Assembly: GCA_902587025.1 (NCBI GenBank)
Contig: CACIJJ010000002.1
Coordinates: forward strand, 23,473-87,472
Direction of reading: 5' to 3'
DNA length: 64,000 nt
Source: an uncultured Candidatus Actinomarina sp.
GTDB taxonomy: Bacteria; Actinomycetota; Acidimicrobiia; Actinomarinales; Actinomarinaceae
The notes below the pieces were generated by a model. That model did no database searches. It was given only the letters and a program-made list of their open reading frames with translations, and had not been told where the DNA came from. The position numbers were made by a program, and so were the translations under genes. This document shows positions 195 through 55,353 of the stretch, piece by piece (position 1 is the first letter of the stretch; the number at the start of each line of letters is the position of its first letter).

Positions 195-267
195 GGCCAG
201 ATAGCTCAGTCGGTAGAGCACTTGTCTGAAAAACAAGGGGTCGGCAGTTCGATTCTGCCTCTGGCCA
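195..267 (+). tRNA. tRNA-Phe (anticodon GAA)
   Basis: Acceptor GGCCAGA/TCTGGCC, D-arm GCTC-AGTCGGTA-GAGC, anticodon stem CTTGT/ACAAG with loop CTGAAAA, T-arm GGCAG-TTCGATT-CTGCC, discriminator A. Only 5 nt after tRNA-Asp. Confidence 0.9.
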
Positions 268-336
268 CAAATATCTATAAAAATTTGATTTGAACCTAAT
301 TTATGTTTAGATAATTTCAACTTTAAAATTTTTTGT

Positions 337-852
337 ATGTTTAACAATTATTTTTATCACACTGGAGAAGATGAGCCAATTGTAACTACTGCAGATTCTG
401 ACTTATTAGGGCTTCTTCTTGATTTTATAAAACATCCTTCAGTTGTCCACTTTCCAATTGCATATTCTGTAGCAATACCCTTTGTTGCTTTTGTAATTTA
501 TAAAGCTATTGCAAGTAAAACTATCAAGCTTTCTTGGTGGTACAGCGTCGTATTTACCCAATTTTTAGTATTTTTACTTCTACTTTTAGCTAGGTATACA
601 GGAAATTTGTTATATAGTGAACACGGATATGATTTGAATCCAACTAGTGAAATACAACTTCATTCAACGCTTGGGACATACTCAATTTATATTAATTTAG
701 TTCTTTTAATTGTCAGTATTCTTCCATTTTTACTTCAACGAAATCAAAAAAATCCTAAATTAATTATGAGAACTTACATTTTACTAGCTTTTGGAAATGC
801 TTTATTTATACTCTACATTGGCTACCTAGGTGGACAAATTGTTTGGGGATAA
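337..852 (+). CDS. hypothetical small polytopic membrane protein (cassette 1 cargo)
   Basis: 171-aa ORF with 4-5 hydrophobic segments. Sits between tRNA-Phe and the first tRNA-Phe 3'-half copy. Confidence 0.45.
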   Translation: MFNNYFYHTGEDEPIVTTADSDLLGLLLDFIKHPSVVHFPIAYSVAIPFVAFVIYKAIASKTIKLSWWYSVVFTQFLVFLLLLLARYTGNLLYSEHGYDLNPTSEIQLHSTLGTYSIYINLVLLIVSILPFLLQRNQKNPKLIMRTYILLAFGNALFILYIGYLGGQIVWG

Positions 853-1022
853 ACGCAAAATCATTTAAAAAATAAGCAATCAAAACCGATAAGAAATCGA
901 TAATCGCTAGTTGATGAAGTCTCTTTCAGTTACCACTCATTGACTTGAGGTTGGTCTCACTAACGAGCGATAATTGTAGATGAATAAGTTAAAATGGAAT
1001 AGGCTTGAAAGGTTTCCCCATA

Positions 1023-1067
1023 TCTGAAAAACAAGGGGTCGGCAGTTCGATTCTGCCTCTGGCCACA
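1023..1067 (+). repeat. att-like copy 1 of tRNA-Phe 3' half (identical to 223-267)
   Basis: tctgaaaaacaaggggtcggcagttcgattctgcctctggccaca matches the anticodon loop through the 3' end of tRNA-Phe exactly. Confidence 0.9.
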
Positions 1068-2648: not shown

Positions 2649-3467
2649 ATGAAAAATAAAATAATATATTGGTACAAAAAATACGTTCCTAGAGGCATTC
2701 AAAAACTTTTTTACATATTAAAAAATATTGATGAATTAATCAAATTAGGACTTTTTAATTTTGAATTGAACAAAGATACAAGAATGTCACAACTAACTTG
2801 GACATATGCAAATTCAAGTAATGTTGACAAGAAGTTTGTTTCGAGAATCACTGAATATATAAATGCTGCAAATAATTTAGATTTACAATTTGATACAAGT
2901 ATTGAACCTGATAAATCTAGACAGTACGAATTTGAATATACAAATATGAATATGTTTCCAGGTGAACATTACAGAATGTTAGTAGGCATTATAAATACTG
3001 AAAATTTTAAAAATTTCATGGAAATAGGTACAGGTTCTGGTATTGCTTCTAAAGCTATTCTTAACAAGACTAATGCAGATATAAACACTTTTGATATTAT
3101 TCCATGGAGGGAAGACGATTCTCATCTTACAAAAGTAGAATTTACCAATAATAGGTTAACACAAATCACTGAAAATTTGTCAAACCCGCAATCTTTCAGG
3201 AAATATTCAGAACTAATTTCTAGCTCTGATTTGATTTTACTCGATGCAGATAAAAGCGGTACTTTTGAGGATTCACTACTTACTAAAATATCTACAATCT
3301 CCTTCGAGATCAAATATAGGCTCCTCTTCATTGATGATATAAGATACTTTTCAATGTACAAAATATGGAAAAAAATTCACAATCCAAAAATTGATCTTAC
3401 TTCATTTGGGCACTGGTCAGGAAGTGGACTAGTAGACATATCAAATGGCTTAATTTATAAAGACTAA
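2649..3467 (+). CDS. class I SAM-dependent methyltransferase-like protein, cassette 3 cargo
   Basis: FMEIGTGSGIAS (GxGxG motif I), then FDII, then LLDADKS. 272 aa. Confidence 0.45.
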   Translation: MKNKIIYWYKKYVPRGIQKLFYILKNIDELIKLGLFNFELNKDTRMSQLTWTYANSSNVDKKFVSRITEYINAANNLDLQFDTSIEPDKSRQYEFEYTNMNMFPGEHYRMLVGIINTENFKNFMEIGTGSGIASKAILNKTNADINTFDIIPWREDDSHLTKVEFTNNRLTQITENLSNPQSFRKYSELISSSDLILLDADKSGTFEDSLLTKISTISFEIKYRLLFIDDIRYFSMYKIWKKIHNPKIDLTSFGHWSGSGLVDISNGLIYKD

Positions 3468-3545
3468 TTTTTTTAGACAATCTATACTCAAACAGAATAA
3501 ATTATTATCAATTGAGATCAAATGTCTTTCCTCAATCAAAAAAGC

Positions 3546-3642: not shown

Positions 3643-6138
3643 ATGAATCAAGTTAAAAAAAATAACATTTTTATTTTTTTAATAATATTTGTTGTAACTT
3701 TCATTCTCTTCTTATTTTTTAATTTATTTGATCAAAAAAATAATTTAGAAATTAATAAATTAGAAGAAAATATGTGTAAATATCACCATTCATCACTACT
3801 CAAAGAAAATTTTTCAGACACTTCAGTAGTTTTAGATATTCAATATAAAAGTAAAGGACTCTCCGTTTTTCCAGATTTAAAAAACATACTATGTGTCGGA
3901 AAAGTCATAGATTATGAGATTAATTTTTATGAGGAGGTTGGCAATTTAACTTATGTAAAACTTAATTTATATGTATTTACTCATGAAAGAATAATTAACC
4001 TATTAAAAATTTTCTTATTAATATTTATAGTTTATTTCCCAAAACTTCCATTAATTAATGACTCTTTTAGCAAAAATAATAAAATCGTCATTCTTGTATT
4101 TTTTTTACTTTTAATAAACCTAATTTTTAGTCTCAAATTTTCGATTGTTAATTTAATTATTGATATTATTTTTTACTCAACTCTGACAATATTTTTTGGA
4201 TCTGATAGTAAAAGATTTGATTTAGTAAACAAGAAACATAATATTTCCATCGATAGCCTCAGGGCTGTTGCAGTATTAGCAGTAATTTTTAATCACTTTG
4301 GATTTAAGTCTTTCGCAAGTGGCTATTTAGGTGTAGATTTATTTTTTGTTATATCTGGATATGTAATTACTAAAAAATATATACATATTAAAAATGATTC
4401 TTCTTTAAGCTTTTACGCAGAGTTTGTCTTTTTTAGATTAAAAAGAATTATTCCTAATCTAATATTTTTCATTACAATCACTTCAATTTTTGTATACCTT
4501 TTAGATTACAACTATAAAAATACACTTATCGGGGCACTTTTTGCTGTATTTGCAATTTCAAATATTTACTTTTACGTAAATTCACTTGATTATTTTTCAA
4601 TAGACTCTTCATTAAATTCATTTACCCATACATGGTCACTTGGAGTCGAAGAACAATTTTATTTAATTTTCCCTTTTCTAATTTATGCATTTGCAAGAAA
4701 TAAAATAAAAAAATCTTATTTTTTAATTCCTACTCTTTTATCTGTATTTTTGTTTTATTCAAGCACCACTACAAGTCCAAGTGCTACTTATTACTTAATA
4801 CAATATAGATTTTGGCAAATAGCATTAGGTTGCCTCTTAATAATATATAGTTTTGAATTAAAAAAATTAGCAAATCTAATACCAGTAAATGCTTTTTTAA
4901 TACCATTAATATTAGTTTTTACAATAAATACATCATATTCACGAAATTTAACATTGATATCAACCCTATTATTTGCGTTAATTATTTTAGGTATTGGAAA
5001 CTCTGACCAAAAGAGTAAAGTTCTAGAATCACCAAAACTAGCAACAATAGGTGTGTTGTCATATTCCCTATATTTATGGCATTGGCCAGTAATTAGTTTA
5101 TCTAAATGGACAAATTTTAAATTTATGACTTTTGAACTTCAGATGTTATTAATTATTACTCTTTCACTACTTTCTTTTAAATTCATAGAACAACCCTTTA
5201 GAAACATATCAATTGATAAGAGAAAAAAATATTTATTAATTCTATTTTCAACTACATTTTTGGTTTGGGTGTCTGTTTTTTCAATTACTAAATTTACAGA
5301 TAGAGACAATACATTGTCTGGAAACAATCCATACGTATTCGAGAAAAAAGATTACAAAAATATAGTAAATGAAATAGATTGCTATCACCCGAATGACATA
5401 GATAATGCTTTCGAGTCATGTATGGTTTATAAAAATGAAAAAGTAAATGTTTATCTGATTGGAGATAGTCATTCAACAAACCATTTTATTAGTTTAGAGC
5501 AAAACTTTAGAAATCAAGAAAATTATAACTTTAACCACTTAGTTGAGTGGGGGTTTATTAGAGATATCCAAGGGATTAAAGGTTGTGCACCAAGTCAAAA
5601 ATGCATTGAAAATAGTTTTGAAAAGCACTTAAATTTTTTTAGAGAAAACTTAGATAAAAATGATATTGTAATTTTTTCTTTTTCAAGAGATTGGTTCAAA
5701 ATAGATGGAGATTTACCCAGAAAAAATATAAATTCAAAGTTAACAAATTTTGAAAATAATTTTTCTAACTTAATTCAAACAATTAAAAACACTAACGCAA
5801 AAATCATCCTTTTAGATGACATACCTAAAACATGTAGCTCAAATGTAAATTTTTATAACGACATTATTGTGAAAGGCAATATCGATTCTTGTACGGTGTC
5901 AGAGGCTGTATCAATCAAAGATAGAAAAGAGCTCACAGATTTATATTCTAAATTTTTAGATGAAAATACAATTTACCTAGATCCTCACAAGGACTTCTGT
6001 AATGACGGCTTTTGTTCAATAATTGACTTAAAAACAAATGAAATAATGTTTTCAGATCTTTCGCCACATATATCGAAAAATGGACTAAAAATTATGGATG
6101 AATTTTGGAAAAAAAATTTTTACACATTAACTAAATGA
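3643..6138 (+). CDS. OafA-like O-acyltransferase (acyltransferase-3 membrane domain + C-terminal SGNH hydrolase domain) with ~200-aa N-terminal extension
   Basis: Acyltransferase-3 signature LRAVAVLAVIFNHFG...GYLGVDLFFVISGYVI, multiple TM segments, and a C-terminal GDSHS (SGNH) motif in YLIGDSHSTNHF. 831 aa. Confidence 0.7.
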   Translation: MNQVKKNNIFIFLIIFVVTFILFLFFNLFDQKNNLEINKLEENMCKYHHSSLLKENFSDTSVVLDIQYKSKGLSVFPDLKNILCVGKVIDYEINFYEEVGNLTYVKLNLYVFTHERIINLLKIFLLIFIVYFPKLPLINDSFSKNNKIVILVFFLLLINLIFSLKFSIVNLIIDIIFYSTLTIFFGSDSKRFDLVNKKHNISIDSLRAVAVLAVIFNHFGFKSFASGYLGVDLFFVISGYVITKKYIHIKNDSSLSFYAEFVFFRLKRIIPNLIFFITITSIFVYLLDYNYKNTLIGALFAVFAISNIYFYVNSLDYFSIDSSLNSFTHTWSLGVEEQFYLIFPFLIYAFARNKIKKSYFLIPTLLSVFLFYSSTTTSPSATYYLIQYRFWQIALGCLLIIYSFELKKLANLIPVNAFLIPLILVFTINTSYSRNLTLISTLLFALIILGIGNSDQKSKVLESPKLATIGVLSYSLYLWHWPVISLSKWTNFKFMTFELQMLLIITLSLLSFKFIEQPFRNISIDKRKKYLLILFSTTFLVWVSVFSITKFTDRDNTLSGNNPYVFEKKDYKNIVNEIDCYHPNDIDNAFESCMVYKNEKVNVYLIGDSHSTNHFISLEQNFRNQENYNFNHLVEWGFIRDIQGIKGCAPSQKCIENSFEKHLNFFRENLDKNDIVIFSFSRDWFKIDGDLPRKNINSKLTNFENNFSNLIQTIKNTNAKIILLDDIPKTCSSNVNFYNDIIVKGNIDSCTVSEAVSIKDRKELTDLYSKFLDENTIYLDPHKDFCNDGFCSIIDLKTNEIMFSDLSPHISKNGLKIMDEFWKKNFYTLTK

Positions 6139-50641: not shown

Positions 50642-50763
50642 TAATACTTTAATTTAAAACTTTGTTCAAAAACAGAAACTATTGTCGGATATATTCATGA
50701 ACAATTATTACACAAAATAAAAATTTAAATAAAAGTAGTGAAGTTTTTTTATAAATTTATTTT

Positions 50764-50807
50764 GTAGGCGCTATAGGATTTGAACCTTTGACTTCTTTTT
50801 TGTAAGG
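50764..50807 (-). repeat. degenerate att-like copy 3 of tRNA-Val 3' half
   Basis: gtaggcgctataggatttgaacctttgacttcttttttgtaagg has about 5 mismatches to tRNA-Val 55281-55324. It is followed by a degenerate agaaccatt...tttatgagttcattgat stretch resembling the long flank repeat. Confidence 0.6.
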
Positions 50808-50900
50808 ATAGAACCATTGACACCAGACTAACTTTATGAGTTCATTGATGTTTGTGATAACGACCCAATACTGAAAGTTTATTTTAACTTTGTGTGTCTT

Positions 50901-51030
50901 TTTTCTATATATATGTAAAGATTTTTGTACAAAATCAGCCAAAGTGCCAATTTTTCTATATATATGAAAAGATTTTTGTACAAAATCAGCCAAAGTGCCA
51001 ATTTTTCTATATATATGTAAAGATTTCTCA
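50901..51030. repeat. ~51-bp tandem repeat, about 2.5 copies
   Basis: ttttctatatatatgtaaagatttttgtacaaaatcagccaaagtgccaat appears at 50901-50951 and 50952-51002, with a partial third copy running into att copy 2. Confidence 0.8.
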
Positions 51031-51220
51031 AAAAACTCTTATGAGCGCTACAGGATTTGAACCTGTGACTTCTTCCTTGTAAGGAAAGAACCATTAAATA
51101 CTAGGTAGTATCAGAAAGTATCAGTTTATAGAGTCAATGAACTTAAGCTTACACAAAAAGATATCAGAGGCTATCAGAGAGTATCTACAGTTTTAGAAAA
51201 TTTTGGTGTCTTTTAGGTGT
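51008..51220. repeat. ~215-bp direct repeat, copy A (att plus flanks, TATCAGA motifs, GTGTCTTTT doublet)
   Basis: About 90% identical to 51798-52003. Contains tatatatgtaaagatttct, the tRNA-Val 3' half, aaagaaccattaaatactaggtagta, 5 TATCAG(A) motifs, and ggtgtcttttaggtgtctttt. Confidence 0.8.
51046..51084 (-). repeat. att-like copy 2 of tRNA-Val 3' half (exact)
   Basis: gcgctacaggatttgaacctgtgacttcttccttgtaagg matches 55285-55324 exactly. Confidence 0.9.
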
Positions 51221-51734
51221 CTTTTATAATTTTTTGTGCCTGAGATCTCACAGCTTTTCTTTCATCATTCTTTAACTGTCTTGCGATACTTATAACATTT
51301 GACTTCAATATTTCGTCTGAATTGGATAATTTTTCTAGAAGTTTTAAACCTTGAGCAAGTATCATCCAGTCTTTACTATTTTCCACCCAACTCATTGCAT
51401 TTTTACTAATAACTTTGTATTCTTTATCGTCAAAATATGAAATGAAATCATAATAAATTGTAATAAGCCCAAGTTTGACTACATTATGTTCAGACTCTGA
51501 AAACTCATCTATGAATCTTTTTTTATTTTCAACAAAAATTTGATTATTACCTTTTATTATTCTTTTTGTTGCATTCATAGCTCTCATTGCAACTAAAGAA
51601 TTGTTAGAAAAAAAACATAAGAATAATTTATCAATTTCTTTTATATTATTTTGAATATGTTCTACTACTTTTAATGTCTCTCCAAGTGAGTTTTGTTTTC
51701 CTTTGCTTAACTCAAATTCAAAATCTAATTCCAT
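51213..51734 (-). CDS. hypothetical protein (alpha-helical, HEAT/ARM-like?), cassette cargo
   Basis: 173-aa ORF flanked on both sides by the roughly 215-bp direct repeats. No recognisable motif. Confidence 0.4.
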   Translation of the reverse strand: MELDFEFELSKGKQNSLGETLKVVEHIQNNIKEIDKLFLCFFSNNSLVAMRAMNATKRIIKGNNQIFVENKKRFIDEFSESEHNVVKLGLITIYYDFISYFDDKEYKVISKNAMSWVENSKDWMILAQGLKLLEKLSNSDEILKSNVISIARQLKNDERKAVRSQAQKIIKDT

Positions 51735-51797
51735 AACTAAATGTATATTACCAAATGAAACTCTACAGAGGTGGTGTCTTCTAGGTGTCTTTTGGGT

Positions 51798-52003
51798 ATA
51801 TATATAAAGATTTCTGATAAACCCTTGTGGGCGCTACAGGATTTGAACCTGTGACTTCTTCCTTGTAAGGAAAGAACCATTAAATACTAGGTAGTACCAG
51901 AGAGTATCAATTTATAGAGTCAATGAACTTAAGCTCTTACAAAAAGATATCAGAAGTTATCAGATAGTGTCTACAGTTATAGAAAATTTGTGTGTCTTTT
52001 GTG
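51798..52003. repeat. ~215-bp direct repeat, copy B
   Basis: tatatataaagatttctgataaacccttgtg, then an exact tRNA-Val 3' half (51828-51870), then aaagaaccattaaatactaggtagtaccagagagtatcaatttatagagtcaatgaactt...tgtgtgtcttttgtgtgtcttt. Confidence 0.8.
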
Positions 52004-52049
52004 TGTCTTTTTATTTTCATACATTATTGCTAGCTATTAATATTTAGAT

Positions 52050-52361
52050 ATGTTCATAAAAAAGAAATCAAAAAAGTTAAAAGTAGAATTTAAAAATATA
52101 CAGACCGATCTTTTAAAAATTAATAAGAAGATTTGTGATCTTTACCAAAAAGTAAATCATCTTAACCTAGAAGAGTTGAGAGAAGAGATAAAAGATTTAC
52201 TAGAGTTTTCAGAAATACAAATAATTAATGAACACAAAGGTTACGATAATTGCTTTACAACATCAAATGGTAAGGAAAATATAATCAATAGGCCAGCTTT
52301 TGTTGATAAATATGGAAATTGTCTTGTACAGGGCTACAGAGAAGTAAAAGAAAAAATCTAA
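52050..52361 (+). CDS. hypothetical small protein, first gene of Hsp70-like operon
   Basis: 103 aa, Lys-rich. Stop lies 5 nt before the ATG of the next gene. Confidence 0.4.
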   Translation: MFIKKKSKKLKVEFKNIQTDLLKINKKICDLYQKVNHLNLEELREEIKDLLEFSEIQIINEHKGYDNCFTTSNGKENIINRPAFVDKYGNCLVQGYREVKEKI

Positions 52362-52366
52362 CTTTA

Positions 52367-54619
52367 ATGAGCAAACAGGCTTTAGGTTTTGATTTTGGTA
52401 CTACTAACTGTACTGTGTCAATTTTTGATAGTGAAGAAGGAATTGCAAAAACACTTCCTATCTCAAATTTTTCAGAGTCAAAGAAAAAGAGTTTAGCTAA
52501 TCAATCATTATTTCCATCAAAAGTTGGTCTTAATAATGATTTTGAATATGTATTTGGTGATGATACAAAAAAATGTGAGCGAGATTTTGTATGGGACAAT
52601 TCCAAAAGATTACTAGAACACAACACTCCAATTTATAGGGGAGGAGTTCATAAAAAACCTATCTGGGTTGCAATAGGTATCATTGCTGGAGTTTTTAAGG
52701 AATTAAAAAATTTATCGATAAAAACTTCATCACCTATGGTAATTACGGTTCCTGCAAACTCTTATAGTGTGCAAAGAAGTCTTACTAGATTAGCTGCTGA
52801 AGCATTTAACTTTAATGTAGATCAATTAGTTTCTGAACCATGCGCAGCAGCTTTAGGTTGTTTCAACTACATTAAAAACTTAAAACATATTTTGATAGTT
52901 GATGTAGGAGGTGGAACAACAGATATTGCTTTATTAGAAAATGATTTTGGGACCTTAAAAGAGATTGAAATTGAAGGCTTGAAAAGATTTGGTGGAATAA
53001 ATATTGATCAAAAACTATTCGACACTTATAAATACGAAGTTGAATTATCGACTGATTCAGAAACATTACTCTTTAGAGATTTACTGGAAGACGTAAAAAT
53101 AGAACTATCAACTAAAAAGAAATCTAAGTTAATTTTTAAAGATCAGGTAATCGAAATTACTAGAGATAGTATTGAAAAATTAATAGAAAAAGATATTGAA
53201 AATTTAGATAAAACTATTGATAGAGTACTTAAAAAGGGAAATGTCGAAGTAAAAAATATAGAGGCTGTTTTACCTATTGGAGGCTCATCTAATATTCCTG
53301 CAATAAGAAATCTTTTGAAAAAAAAGTTTAAATCCAGGTTTATTAATCTTAATTTTGAAGAATCAATAACTGCTGTTGCAAATGGAGCAGCAACAGCTTC
53401 AGCCATAAATGCAAAAATTATTGATAATCTAAGTTTTAAACAGTGTCTAGAACATAGTGTTGGCCTTAGGGTGTGGAGCGGCACTAAAGAAAATAAGATT
53501 TTTAAAGCAATACTTGAAAAAGGATCAGTATTTCCAGCATCAGCAGTAGAAACATTTATCTCGGATACAGATGAATCTGTAGTTGCTTTGTATGAAAGTA
53601 CTTCAGGTAAATTAAAAAATAATGATACAAAATTAATTATTGAAAAAAGAATAAAAACTGGTGTTATGCATGTTGATGTTGAGCTCACCTATGATGACGA
53701 TGGAAAAATAGATATTAAGACATACAACATAAATAAAGGAGAACGTGGAAAATTAGGAGACTTGGGAGACAGTACTGAGGATTCTCAAGGGTATATAAAG
53801 AATTTGCAATCAAAATCTCGTAAGCAAGGAATGGATTTAAAAATTGACAATATAAATTACATAGATTCACAATTAACCCAAAAAAAATTAAAAGAATGGT
53901 CGAATGAGTTTTTAGGGAAGTATAAAAAATATAAAAAAGTATCAAAAAAAGTTAAAAATATATTCAAAAAAGAATTTAAAGATGAATTTGTTTCAATTAA
54001 TAAGGAAAATATTTCTGAAGCAATATTTAAAGTGAGAACAGAACTCGATTTTGGTAGTACTAATGATGCATTTATGTTCGCAAGAGGTATTTTGAAACAT
54101 TCTTTAAGGGTGGTGTTTAATATTGCAGGTTATGAAAAACTTCATCACTTTCAAAGTATTCATAAATTATTAGGAGAAAGAGACGTTGTGTATCAAACAA
54201 CACAGAAGCTTTTACCAGAACAACCTCTTGAAGATATTAGGTGGTTAATAAAAGTTCTTCAGAAATCTAGATATTTAAAGAACTTAGGACACACAAATAC
54301 TCAAGAAGTTAGAGACAGTCTTGAATCATTAAGAACAATCTTAAATAAATTTAGTCATGGTGTTCGTTCAAGTTTTTTTGGATTATTTACAGATTCATTA
54401 GATGAATACGATTCTTCAATTGAAAGTAACATACTAAATGCTGTTTATAAAGAATCTAAATATACACCCCAGGATGTTGTCCTACTGGCCTCTAACGTAG
54501 TCTATTTATTAACTTCTCTAATTAATACAGAAGAATATAAGGGAAAAGATAGAGAAAATCTTATGAAAATGCTAGAAAGTATGCTTGCTTTAGAACAGAC
54601 ATATAAAGATGATTTTTAA
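52367..54619 (+). CDS. atypical Hsp70-family ATPase (DnaK-like NBD + SBD-beta-like region + ~290-aa unique alpha-helical C-terminal domain)
   Basis: LGFDFGTTNCTVSIF (phosphate-1), ILIVDVGGGTTDIALL (phosphate-2), VLPIGGSSNIPAIRNLL (adenosine). No EEVD. The C-terminal half is unrelated to the DnaK lid. The track ORF starts at 52319, but the internal ATG at 52367 follows the upstream stop. Confidence 0.65.
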   Translation: MSKQALGFDFGTTNCTVSIFDSEEGIAKTLPISNFSESKKKSLANQSLFPSKVGLNNDFEYVFGDDTKKCERDFVWDNSKRLLEHNTPIYRGGVHKKPIWVAIGIIAGVFKELKNLSIKTSSPMVITVPANSYSVQRSLTRLAAEAFNFNVDQLVSEPCAAALGCFNYIKNLKHILIVDVGGGTTDIALLENDFGTLKEIEIEGLKRFGGINIDQKLFDTYKYEVELSTDSETLLFRDLLEDVKIELSTKKKSKLIFKDQVIEITRDSIEKLIEKDIENLDKTIDRVLKKGNVEVKNIEAVLPIGGSSNIPAIRNLLKKKFKSRFINLNFEESITAVANGAATASAINAKIIDNLSFKQCLEHSVGLRVWSGTKENKIFKAILEKGSVFPASAVETFISDTDESVVALYESTSGKLKNNDTKLIIEKRIKTGVMHVDVELTYDDDGKIDIKTYNINKGERGKLGDLGDSTEDSQGYIKNLQSKSRKQGMDLKIDNINYIDSQLTQKKLKEWSNEFLGKYKKYKKVSKKVKNIFKKEFKDEFVSINKENISEAIFKVRTELDFGSTNDAFMFARGILKHSLRVVFNIAGYEKLHHFQSIHKLLGERDVVYQTTQKLLPEQPLEDIRWLIKVLQKSRYLKNLGHTNTQEVRDSLESLRTILNKFSHGVRSSFFGLFTDSLDEYDSSIESNILNAVYKESKYTPQDVVLLASNVVYLLTSLINTEEYKGKDRENLMKMLESMLALEQTYKDDF

Positions 54620-55196
54620 AAAAAGAAAAATTCAAAAAATTATTTCACTTCACAAAGATGAGATAGCTGATTTAGAAGATGAATATAGGGAAAAACTAAA
54701 ACTTTTGAAAATTGAGGCTGATAATCATTTGGATAAAGAAATTACCAAATATAAAGAAAAATTAGCAAAAGAACAGAATCAAAAAGCTGATTCTGAAAAG
54801 CAAAAGCTACAAACTAAACATGATAAAGAAATCAAACATTTGATCAACGAATATGAAAAACAAAAAATCTTAGAACTTGAAAAGTTAGAAAAAAAATTTC
54901 GAGACTCTGATGTTTTCACAAAGAAGTTACAAAAGTATTTTTCTGATGAACTTGGCAGAGAGTATCAAGATGTTTCATTTAAAGAGCTTGAAGAAGATTT
55001 GAAAAATGATTTAAAAGAGATTGTATATGAAATTAACGATTTAAATAAGCAAGTTGATGATAGCAAGGATAAACTTTTACAATTTAATGAACTTGCTAAA
55101 GAAATAAATTATTTAGAAGAAGAAATAGGAATTAAACGTAATGAACTTTATGAAATCAAGCAGGCAATCAAAGAACTAAAAAAAGAAGGTAATTAA
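54609..55196 (+). CDS. coiled-coil protein (Lys/Glu-rich), third gene of Hsp70-like operon
   Basis: 195 aa with heptad-like KE-rich repeats throughout. Overlaps the preceding gene by 11 nt. Confidence 0.45.
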   Translation: MIFKKRKIQKIISLHKDEIADLEDEYREKLKLLKIEADNHLDKEITKYKEKLAKEQNQKADSEKQKLQTKHDKEIKHLINEYEKQKILELEKLEKKFRDSDVFTKKLQKYFSDELGREYQDVSFKELEEDLKNDLKEIVYEINDLNKQVDDSKDKLLQFNELAKEINYLEEEIGIKRNELYEIKQAIKELKKEGN

Positions 55197-55220
55197 TTTT
55201 TGCATATTCAAAAAGTAATT

Positions 55221-55279
55221 TGTGTGTCTTTTGTGTGTCTTTTTACTATATATATGTAAAGATTTCTGAAAAACCCTTG
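55221..55279. repeat. conserved tRNA-Val 3' flank (GTGTCTTTT doublet + tatatatgtaaagatttctgaaaaacccttgtg)
   Basis: Same sequence module that precedes each att copy at 51775-51827 and, less well, at 51008-51045. Confidence 0.7.
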
Positions 55280-55353
55280 TGGGCGCTACAGGATTTGAAC
55301 CTGTGACTTCTTCCTTGTAAGGGAAGCGCTCTGCCAGACTGAGCTAAGCGCCC
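55280..55353 (-). tRNA. tRNA-Val (anticodon TAC)
   Basis: The reverse complement folds as GGGCGCT-TA-GCTC-AGTCTGGCA-GAGC-G-CTTCC-CTTACAA-GGAAG-AAGTC-ACAGG-TTCAAAT-CCTGT-AGCGCCC-A. Confidence 0.85.

Follow-up and report, generated by a model that had tools for sequence, protein, structure and literature searches.

A tRNA-Val cassette of Candidatus Actinomarina encoding an Hsp70-like protein with an orphan helical tail: a candidate conflict module

The three genes and their cassette

The stretch of 64,000 nt from an uncultured Candidatus Actinomarina sp. that was analysed here (contig CACIJJ010000002.1, positions 23,473 to 87,472; hereafter the window) contains, beside a tRNA-Val gene, an operon of three genes encoding a small Lys-rich protein, an Hsp70-like protein that ends in an orphan helical domain, and a coiled-coil protein. 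The three open reading frames (ORFs) lie at 52050-52361, 52367-54619 and 54609-55196, all on the + strand, with a 5-nt gap followed by an 11-nt overlap, and the sequence confirms both the positions and the spacing given in the earlier note, which had been made on this DNA from its letters alone. That note gave the Hsp70-like protein 751 residues; the length is corrected to 750 aa, counted from the ATG at 52367 that matches all homologues, the mechanical ORF beginning at a TTG at 52319. All three genes are under purifying selection, with dN/dS values of 0.09 for the small gene, 0.10 for the Hsp70 gene and 0.27-0.35 for the coiled-coil gene, and antisense ORFs inside the Hsp70 gene (e.g. 53143-53688) were treated as spurious. 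The features of the locus are as follows, with the strand in brackets.

52050-52361 (+): small Lys-rich protein, 103 aa, with a basic N-terminus, a predicted helix and the motif F69...R81-x-A83-x-x-D86...G95
52367-53416 (+): Hsp70-like protein, nucleotide-binding domain, residues 1-350
53429-53968 (+): Hsp70-like protein, linker and entry motif, beta-subdomain (residues 355-456) and lid-like helices (residues 457-534)
54032-54616 (+): Hsp70-like protein, orphan helical domain, residues 556-750 (~190 aa), with D623-x-R625 at 54233-54241 and N660-x3-H664 at 54344-54358
54609-55196 (+): coiled-coil accessory protein, 195 aa, with the N-terminus MIFKKRKI, the centre YRxKLxxWKxxADxHL and the C-terminus NELAKE..YLEEEI..NELYE.KQAI
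51825-51874 (-): displaced tRNA-Val 3'-half at the distal (attL-like) end of the cassette, with an exact 42/42 core match to the intact tRNA
51875-52049 (+): distal arm and upstream region of the operon, with TATCAG-like repeats and the 24-nt box TGTGTGTCTTTTGTGTGTCTTTTT at 51989-52012
55197-55278 (+): proximal arm adjoining the tRNA, with the second 24-nt box at 55221-55244
55279-55353 (-): intact tRNA-Val(tac), the integration target, called by ARAGORN
51039-51824 (-): older neighbouring unit outside the module, with a tRNA-Val fragment at 51039-51088 and a 173-aa gene at 51213-51734 (-)

Two exact copies of the tRNA-Val 3'-half bound a cassette of 3,452 nt, measured from start to start, and given these repeats the three genes are therefore the sole cargo of the cassette adjoining the intact tRNA. 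Further 3'-half repeats lie at 51039-51088 (1 mismatch) and 50762-50818 (degenerate); by chance, none would be expected. The 24-nt box TGTGTGTC is found at both ends of the cassette (51989-52012 and 55221-55244), a 193-nt block at 51819-52011 is 91% identical to 51033-51225 of the neighbouring cassette, and the final ~39 nt before the small gene are ~90% conserved in the related loci L001-L005, L113, L117 and L120. No integrase is encoded in the cassette.

The module is a recent insertion at tRNA-Val that varies between strains and is not a core gene. In five sister genomes (L096, L097, L098, L100 and L102) the site is empty, with the 173-aa gene ~95 bp from the intact tRNA-Val and nothing between, while the same slot is taken by a 671-aa HtrA-like protease (SHOCT-Trypsin_2-PDZ-fn3) in L099 (4704-6719) and by a 448-aa SBP_bac_3 solute-binding protein in L101 (4185-5531). 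The claim that the cassette closest to the tRNA is the newest is supported because sister sites are empty or hold other cargo, and what was found among related genomes is a polymorphism of presence and absence at tRNA-Val, not the conserved, non-mobile core locus that the earlier note had named as the outcome that would speak against a mobile module. Furthermore, window 51774-55207, that is, the cassette, has a 97.4%-identical counterpart in the Tara contig L093, where both flanks differ.

Several observations on the surroundings of the cassette are set down here in their own right. At the right boundary of the cassette in L093, 44 nt (4158-4201) match the proximal arm of the window (55221-55264) in inverted orientation, and beyond this boundary lie unrelated genes (543 aa, 152 aa and an N6/N4 methyltransferase). 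Positions 1-3500 of L104 (MDTA01089994.1) correspond to the cassette alone with a tRNA-Val fragment at both ends (1-43 and 3445-3494); the contig may represent a cassette excised as a circle, or else an assembly that broke off at the repeat. The window has three tandem 51-nt units (TTTTTCTATATATATGTAAAGATTTTTGTACAAAATCAGCCAAAGTGCCAA) at 50900-51052, in the interval that separates the degenerate tRNA-Val fragment from the second one, and at its start the unit is similar to the letters immediately outside the intact tRNA-Val. Many other genomes have an identical copy of the 173-aa gene that precedes the cassette; this gene belongs to a 90% cluster of 433 members and elsewhere directly abuts tRNA-Val.

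The genes that flank the cassette in the window encode glycosyltransferases, sugar-nucleotide enzymes and a class II ribonucleotide reductase (NrdJ), and a tRNA scan places tRNA-Asp and tRNA-Phe at the opposite end. This setting matches fGI1, the envelope-glycosylation flexible island of marine Acidimicrobiia ('Ca. Actinomarinales'), which the window spans. The fGI1 paper (PMC7771536) describes an envelope-related flexible genomic island that takes additive gene cassettes targeted to tRNAs, and the cassette described here fits that pattern both in its tRNA-repeat bounds and in its presence/absence polymorphism. The same paper gives tRNA-Val as a prophage integration site in the order and reports its genomes to be without toxin-antitoxin or CRISPR systems; text searches of it found no mention of an Hsp70 cargo. 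At the far end of the island, window 195-1066 holds a second cassette of the tRNA-bounded kind, consisting of an intact tRNA-Phe (195-268), an ORF for a 171-aa membrane protein (337-852) and a direct repeat of the tRNA-Phe 3' end (~1026-1066), the last of which ARAGORN calls as an odd 80-nt 'tRNA-Phe' (987-1066).

The Hsp70-like protein and its helical tail

By alignment and profile, the large protein is a genuine Hsp70 at the superfamily level. It matches Pfam HSP70 with an E-value of 1e-31 over residues 122-548, and when aligned with DnaK and HscA the catalytic set of Hsp70 (DxGTTN, the K70-equivalent, NEP..AA, DxGGGTxD and GG..P) is invariant in 96 of the 96 relatives. A beta-sandwich substrate-binding subdomain follows the nucleotide-binding domain, entered through an invariant F-x-QCLEHSV-x-L. 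The AF2 model of the full protein (pLDDT 77, pTM 0.77) is made up of the nucleotide-binding domain, the beta-subdomain, lid-like helices, a disordered linker and a helical C-terminal domain (residues 565-749 in the model), and the predicted conformation is ATP-state-like, as in bacterial Hsp70s. The intact motifs and the beta-subdomain that had been read from the letters alone thus hold in the alignment, in the model and in the invariance of the family. Matches to Pfam MreB_Mbl and ParM_N and to a PHROG 'partition protein' were seen as well.

The protein is, judged by its scores and identity, not a housekeeping DnaK or HscA chaperone, and the earlier note, too, had held that it is no housekeeping DnaK. 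Its best NCBIfam scores are ~98-108 bits, far under the cut-offs for DnaK, HscA and HscC (620-1019), it is 21-24% identical to DnaK and HscA, and a large gap separates the family from both. What it shares with DnaK, HscA and HscC is the fold, the catalytic residues, the beta-subdomain, part of the lid and the ATP-state-like predicted conformation; what sets it apart is a changed J-contact segment, the lack of a J-protein or GrpE partner, the added orphan domain and a mobile, strain-variable setting. In the alignment the RIINEPT segment of DnaK, which we take to be its J-domain contact segment (R167, N170 and T173), reads QLVSEPC throughout the family. The lid and tail had been described as replaced by ~290 unrelated residues. 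An unrelated domain is indeed present, but the ~80 residues of helices 457-534 are kept and still lid-like, such that the orphan domain that replaces the remainder comes to ~190 aa.

This C-terminal domain, when modelled alone, reaches a pLDDT of 83.5. Residues D623, R625 and H664 are invariant in 96/96 relatives and N660 is kept in 95/96; N660-x3-H664 is placed where a long helix ends and a loop begins, and D-x-R lies in an insert before that helix. The invariance of D-x-R and N-x3-H suggests catalysis. In HEPN domains, the Rx4-6H motif sits at a helix end entering a loop and the residue after the arginine is typically N, and some HEPN families keep the histidine without the arginine and have a basic residue elsewhere (PMC3710099). 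The canonical HEPN arginine is missing here, position -5 being L or T, with R or H at -8. Among folds, the Swt1 HEPN domain matches it best. Comparison with the Abi2/Swt1-branch HEPN RNases (PMC3710099) finds a likeness in the histidine with N at -4, the helix-end position, the insert before the helix and the defence-type context, whereas the absence of an arginine at canonical Rx4-6H spacing, of a profile match and of a Foldseek match, together with the extra C-terminal helices here, sets the domain apart from them. Foldseek against the PDB returned nothing significant, the domain has no PDB sequence match, and no HEPN or DUF4145 family is among its Pfam matches up to an E-value of 10. Given this mixture, the modelled fold would make the tail an HEPN-fold effector at roughly even odds, and that it is an active RNase we rate lower.

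In an exhaustive HMMER search of 1.84 billion representatives, the C-terminal domain turned up nowhere but in this family and in a pair of stand-alone proteins of 164 aa. The latter, P0127 and P0128 (L135 820-1314), are weak homologues (E-values 4e-5 and 6e-4) that keep D-x-R-[FY] and L-N-x3-H; the one context retrieved is a 1.4-kb contig and is uninformative.

Partner proteins and relatives

A homologue of the small protein lies immediately upstream of the Hsp70 gene, on the same strand, in every locus of the family in which the upstream region is on the contig, and in other subfamilies its gene often overlaps the Hsp70 start. The small protein is ~27-30% identical across subfamilies, has no Pfam or PDB match, and a profile search of 5.8 billion proteins confined its family to this system. 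The coiled-coil protein belongs to no Pfam family; in 25 loci a homologue, of 146-261 aa and with a rod of variable length between the conserved blocks, is encoded downstream in the same orientation. Only the main subfamily and the P0060-type have its gene, the latter with two paralogues, and three distant subfamilies (the P0065-, P0071- and P0067-types) lack it. In its place, the P0065-type has a convergent orphan gene of 310 aa, which shares ~20 nt with the 3' end of the Hsp70 gene, and the P0071-type a divergent 476-aa coiled-coil gene, and the P0067-type has no recurrent third gene beside the Hsp70. The core that is conserved consists of two translationally coupled genes, one for a small orphan protein of ~100 aa and one for an Hsp70 fusion. 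The operon of three that had been proposed as the unit is real at this locus, but across the family it is the gene pair that is conserved, not the triad.

Neither partner is a standard co-chaperone, in agreement with the earlier note, since Pfam, hhalign and profile searches gave no such match. There is no DnaJ match and no HPD motif in either partner; for GrpE, there is no Pfam match in the partners, and a regular-expression search over the retrieved loci of relatives found none. The small protein was considered as a GrpE, the 'GY...RPAFV' after its helix recalling the C-terminal signature of GrpE, but hhalign against E. coli GrpE gave a probability of 0.3% and the assignment was rejected. 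The N-termini of the two partners are alike, MFIKKKSKKLKV (52050-52085) and MIFKKRKIQKI (54609-54641), each hydrophobic and then a run of Lys/Arg. It is speculative, but from their composition these termini may resemble the hydrophobic-plus-basic peptides bound by DnaK and so be client-like.

Most close relatives have a fourth gene upstream of the small gene, a divergent, charged orphan of 173-175 aa (MDENKKEKMKNWLETGIRE...YRQYGAPLTPRDKDY), for example at L001 7131-7658 (-) and in 21 other loci; it is absent in the window, in L093 and in the L104 version. The 173-aa neighbour of the cassette in the window (51213-51734) was tried as this fourth gene and rejected, as the two have no similarity and the neighbour is a ubiquitous resident of tRNA-Val. 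The P0065-type (L088-L091, L124, L125, L127 and L128) always adjoins a tRNA-Arg/Ser cluster, where no tRNA fragment repeat was seen.

The family comprises ~74 clusters at 90% identity. Every one of them comes from marine metagenomes or single-cell genomes, at a GC content of 27-32%, and a scan of the genome collection with generic Hsp70 motifs found only unrelated Hsp70-like loci. Neighbours of relatives include a Bsp6I restriction-modification pair, an SbcCD-like pair of ATPase and phosphoesterase, a Cas4/RNase_H_2-like nuclease, NERD-UvrD helicases (PADLOC RTasNERD-Hel, 1.5e-31), a 1,473-aa helicase that resembles Mokosh proteins and PDC-S37, and DarT-Macro genes. Ten loci from several subfamilies (L005, L086, L087, L108, L109, L115, L116, L121, L131 and L132) lie at a second hotspot, beside a lysA-like (Orn/DAP decarboxylase) gene. 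From one of these loci to another, identity is 88-98% for the lysA-like neighbour and only 33-41% for the Hsp70 genes. Where closely related hosts share a hotspot, deeply divergent alleles, as these sequences appear to be, are typical of immune genes and argue against a fixed housekeeping role, and variants this far apart next to nearly unchanged host genes indicate that diversifying pressure is strong in natural populations.

Possible roles of the module

PADLOC-DB 2.0 models, against which the components of the module were compared, gave no meaningful match, which bears out the earlier note's failure to recognise a named defence system, and judged by such profiles the module belongs to no named system. 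In the literature searched, Hsp70-like proteins appear in defence only as computational predictions. Among the closest are the CnuD/CnuCD proteins of CoCoNuT type III and Hsp70-McrB fusions, predicted relatives of type IV restriction (PMC11090510). They resemble the module in having an Hsp70 nucleotide-binding and substrate-binding domain with a helical extension, coiled-coil partners, HEPN-type effectors and a defence context, and neither has a J-protein or GrpE. They differ in that the cassette lacks a McrB-like GTPase (CnuB), AAA_5 or McrC/DUF2357 (CnuC), none of which recurs beside relatives, and in that the putative HEPN domain of the module is fused to the Hsp70 itself; by its description CnuD, with degenerate Walker A-like motifs, is likewise set apart from a protein whose ATPase residues are invariant. 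The GTPase-centred conflict systems (Kaur et al. 2020, PMC7159879) also place an Hsp70-family protein in a predicted conflict system, but theirs comes with GAP1-N2/DO-GTPases and with GrpE and J-domain partners, and the module has neither the GTPase nor those partners.

Read from this context, the three genes quite possibly form an undescribed, lineage-restricted conflict module with a role in anti-phage defence or abortive infection, and possibly in addiction too, although we put this forward tentatively. The earlier note had taken the integration hotspot as a signature of defence. As evidence the hotspot is weak here: it is not specific to defence, since genes for a solute-binding protein and for an HtrA-like protease enter at this tRNA-Val too. 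An antiphage function is better backed by the neighbours of relatives and by the divergence beside a conserved host gene. A number of points weigh against such a function. The hotspot of the window lies in an envelope-glycosylation island and accepts non-defence cargo, the defence-type neighbours were seen for relatives and not for this copy, and the PADLOC comparison yielded only a weak and partial match to PDC-M61B over the ATPase fold (1.7e-5) and coiled-coil matches at noise level. Moreover, the roles assigned to the two partners are conjecture: the small protein would be a stoichiometric regulator, acting as inhibitor, decoy client or adaptor, and the coiled-coil protein of variable length would be a subfamily-specific scaffold.

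Hsp70s specialised for particular clients have an established precedent in HscA and HscC. Given that the ATPase, the beta-subdomain and part of the lid are intact, it is possible that the protein is a specialised, non-immune chaperone for one dedicated client, such as a component of the envelope or surface, with the small and coiled-coil proteins as its private co-factors. The position of the cassette inside a glycosylation island (PMC7771536) and the entry of an SBP_bac_3 protein and an HtrA-like protease at the same tRNA-Val would both be in keeping with such a role. However, this is unlikely for several reasons: first, the module is absent from sister genomes and the cassette, with three genes only, contains no client gene. 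Second, there is no J-protein or GrpE, and the residues of the J-contact are changed. Third, relatives lie among restriction-modification, helicase and DarT genes, and an identity of 33-41% beside a neighbour at 88-98% is atypical of a protein with a fixed client. Finally, D-x-R and N-x3-H are invariant in the tail, which suggests that it is catalytic.

By analogy with toxin-antitoxin-chaperone (TAC) systems, the module could instead be an addiction module that stabilises the cassette or island, in which the tail would be the toxin, the small protein a labile antitoxin and the Hsp70 part the control on antitoxin stability. The small gene is upstream and translationally coupled, the partner N-termini look like chaperone clients, the cassette has no integrase of its own, and HEPN domains are common toxins (PMC3710099). 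We nevertheless consider this improbable, as the small protein is unlike the nucleotidyltransferase (MNT) antitoxins usual for HEPN toxins or any known antitoxin, the HEPN assignment is itself tentative and Ca. Actinomarinales are reported to be without toxin-antitoxin systems (PMC7771536). An addiction role would in any case overlap with abortive infection and is not exclusive of it.

Some viruses encode homologues of Hsp70, and the att-like arms without an integrase imply that an integrase is needed in trans. This raises the possibility that the module derives from a phage or satellite, as a moron, a host-takeover factor or an assembly chaperone left at a phage attachment site, tRNA-Val being a prophage integration site in the order (PMC7771536). 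Such an origin is very improbable: relatives lie in chromosomal islands beside lysA and tRNA clusters, no member of the family was found in 50,697 phage records, where the matches were generic DnaK-like ones at <=26% identity (some of them in jumbo phages), and IMG/VR held no close relative and no instance of QCLEHSV[GA]. The host-takeover option offered in the earlier note thus finds no support in the phage records or IMG/VR. An actin-like filament or partition system of the ParM/MreB type, with the small partner gene encoding its adaptor, would account for the MreB_Mbl, ParM_N and PHROG 'partition protein' matches but is disfavoured by the fold comparison and is hardly credible.

If the module does act in conflict with phages, as an anti-phage or abortive-infection system, the Hsp70 part would serve as an ATP-driven clamp or sensor for an exposed peptide of hydrophobic-basic character, supplied by a phage protein or by the Hsp70's own partners. 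Alternatively, the trigger may be the loss of its own client-like partners, whose N-termini are MFIKKKSKKLKV and MIFKKRKIQKI. The nucleotide-dependent docking of the beta-subdomain and lid would gate the HEPN-like tail which, once freed or dimerised, would cleave RNA such that growth of the infected cell stops. The module would run without a J-protein or GrpE. It is conceivable, if on the doubtful side, that here, for the first time in an immune system, a complete Hsp70 cycle serves as infection sensor, with a nuclease-like effector in the same polypeptide, no J-protein or GrpE and two orphan regulators.

Hsp70 is among the best-understood of molecular machines, and the literature found describes no prokaryotic defence system built around it that has been validated by experiment. 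Should the module prove not to be immune, it would still be an unusual J-independent Hsp70 to which three orphan protein families are attached. If the immune interpretation is true, the module would offer a tractable model in which to learn how the recognition of unfolded or foreign proteins in the manner of a chaperone can give rise to an immune signal. Such a module would represent lineage-specific immunity in one of the ocean's most abundant genome-streamlined bacteria as well, and would show by what means the abundant, streamlined Actinomarina, believed to have hardly any defence genes, withstands phages.

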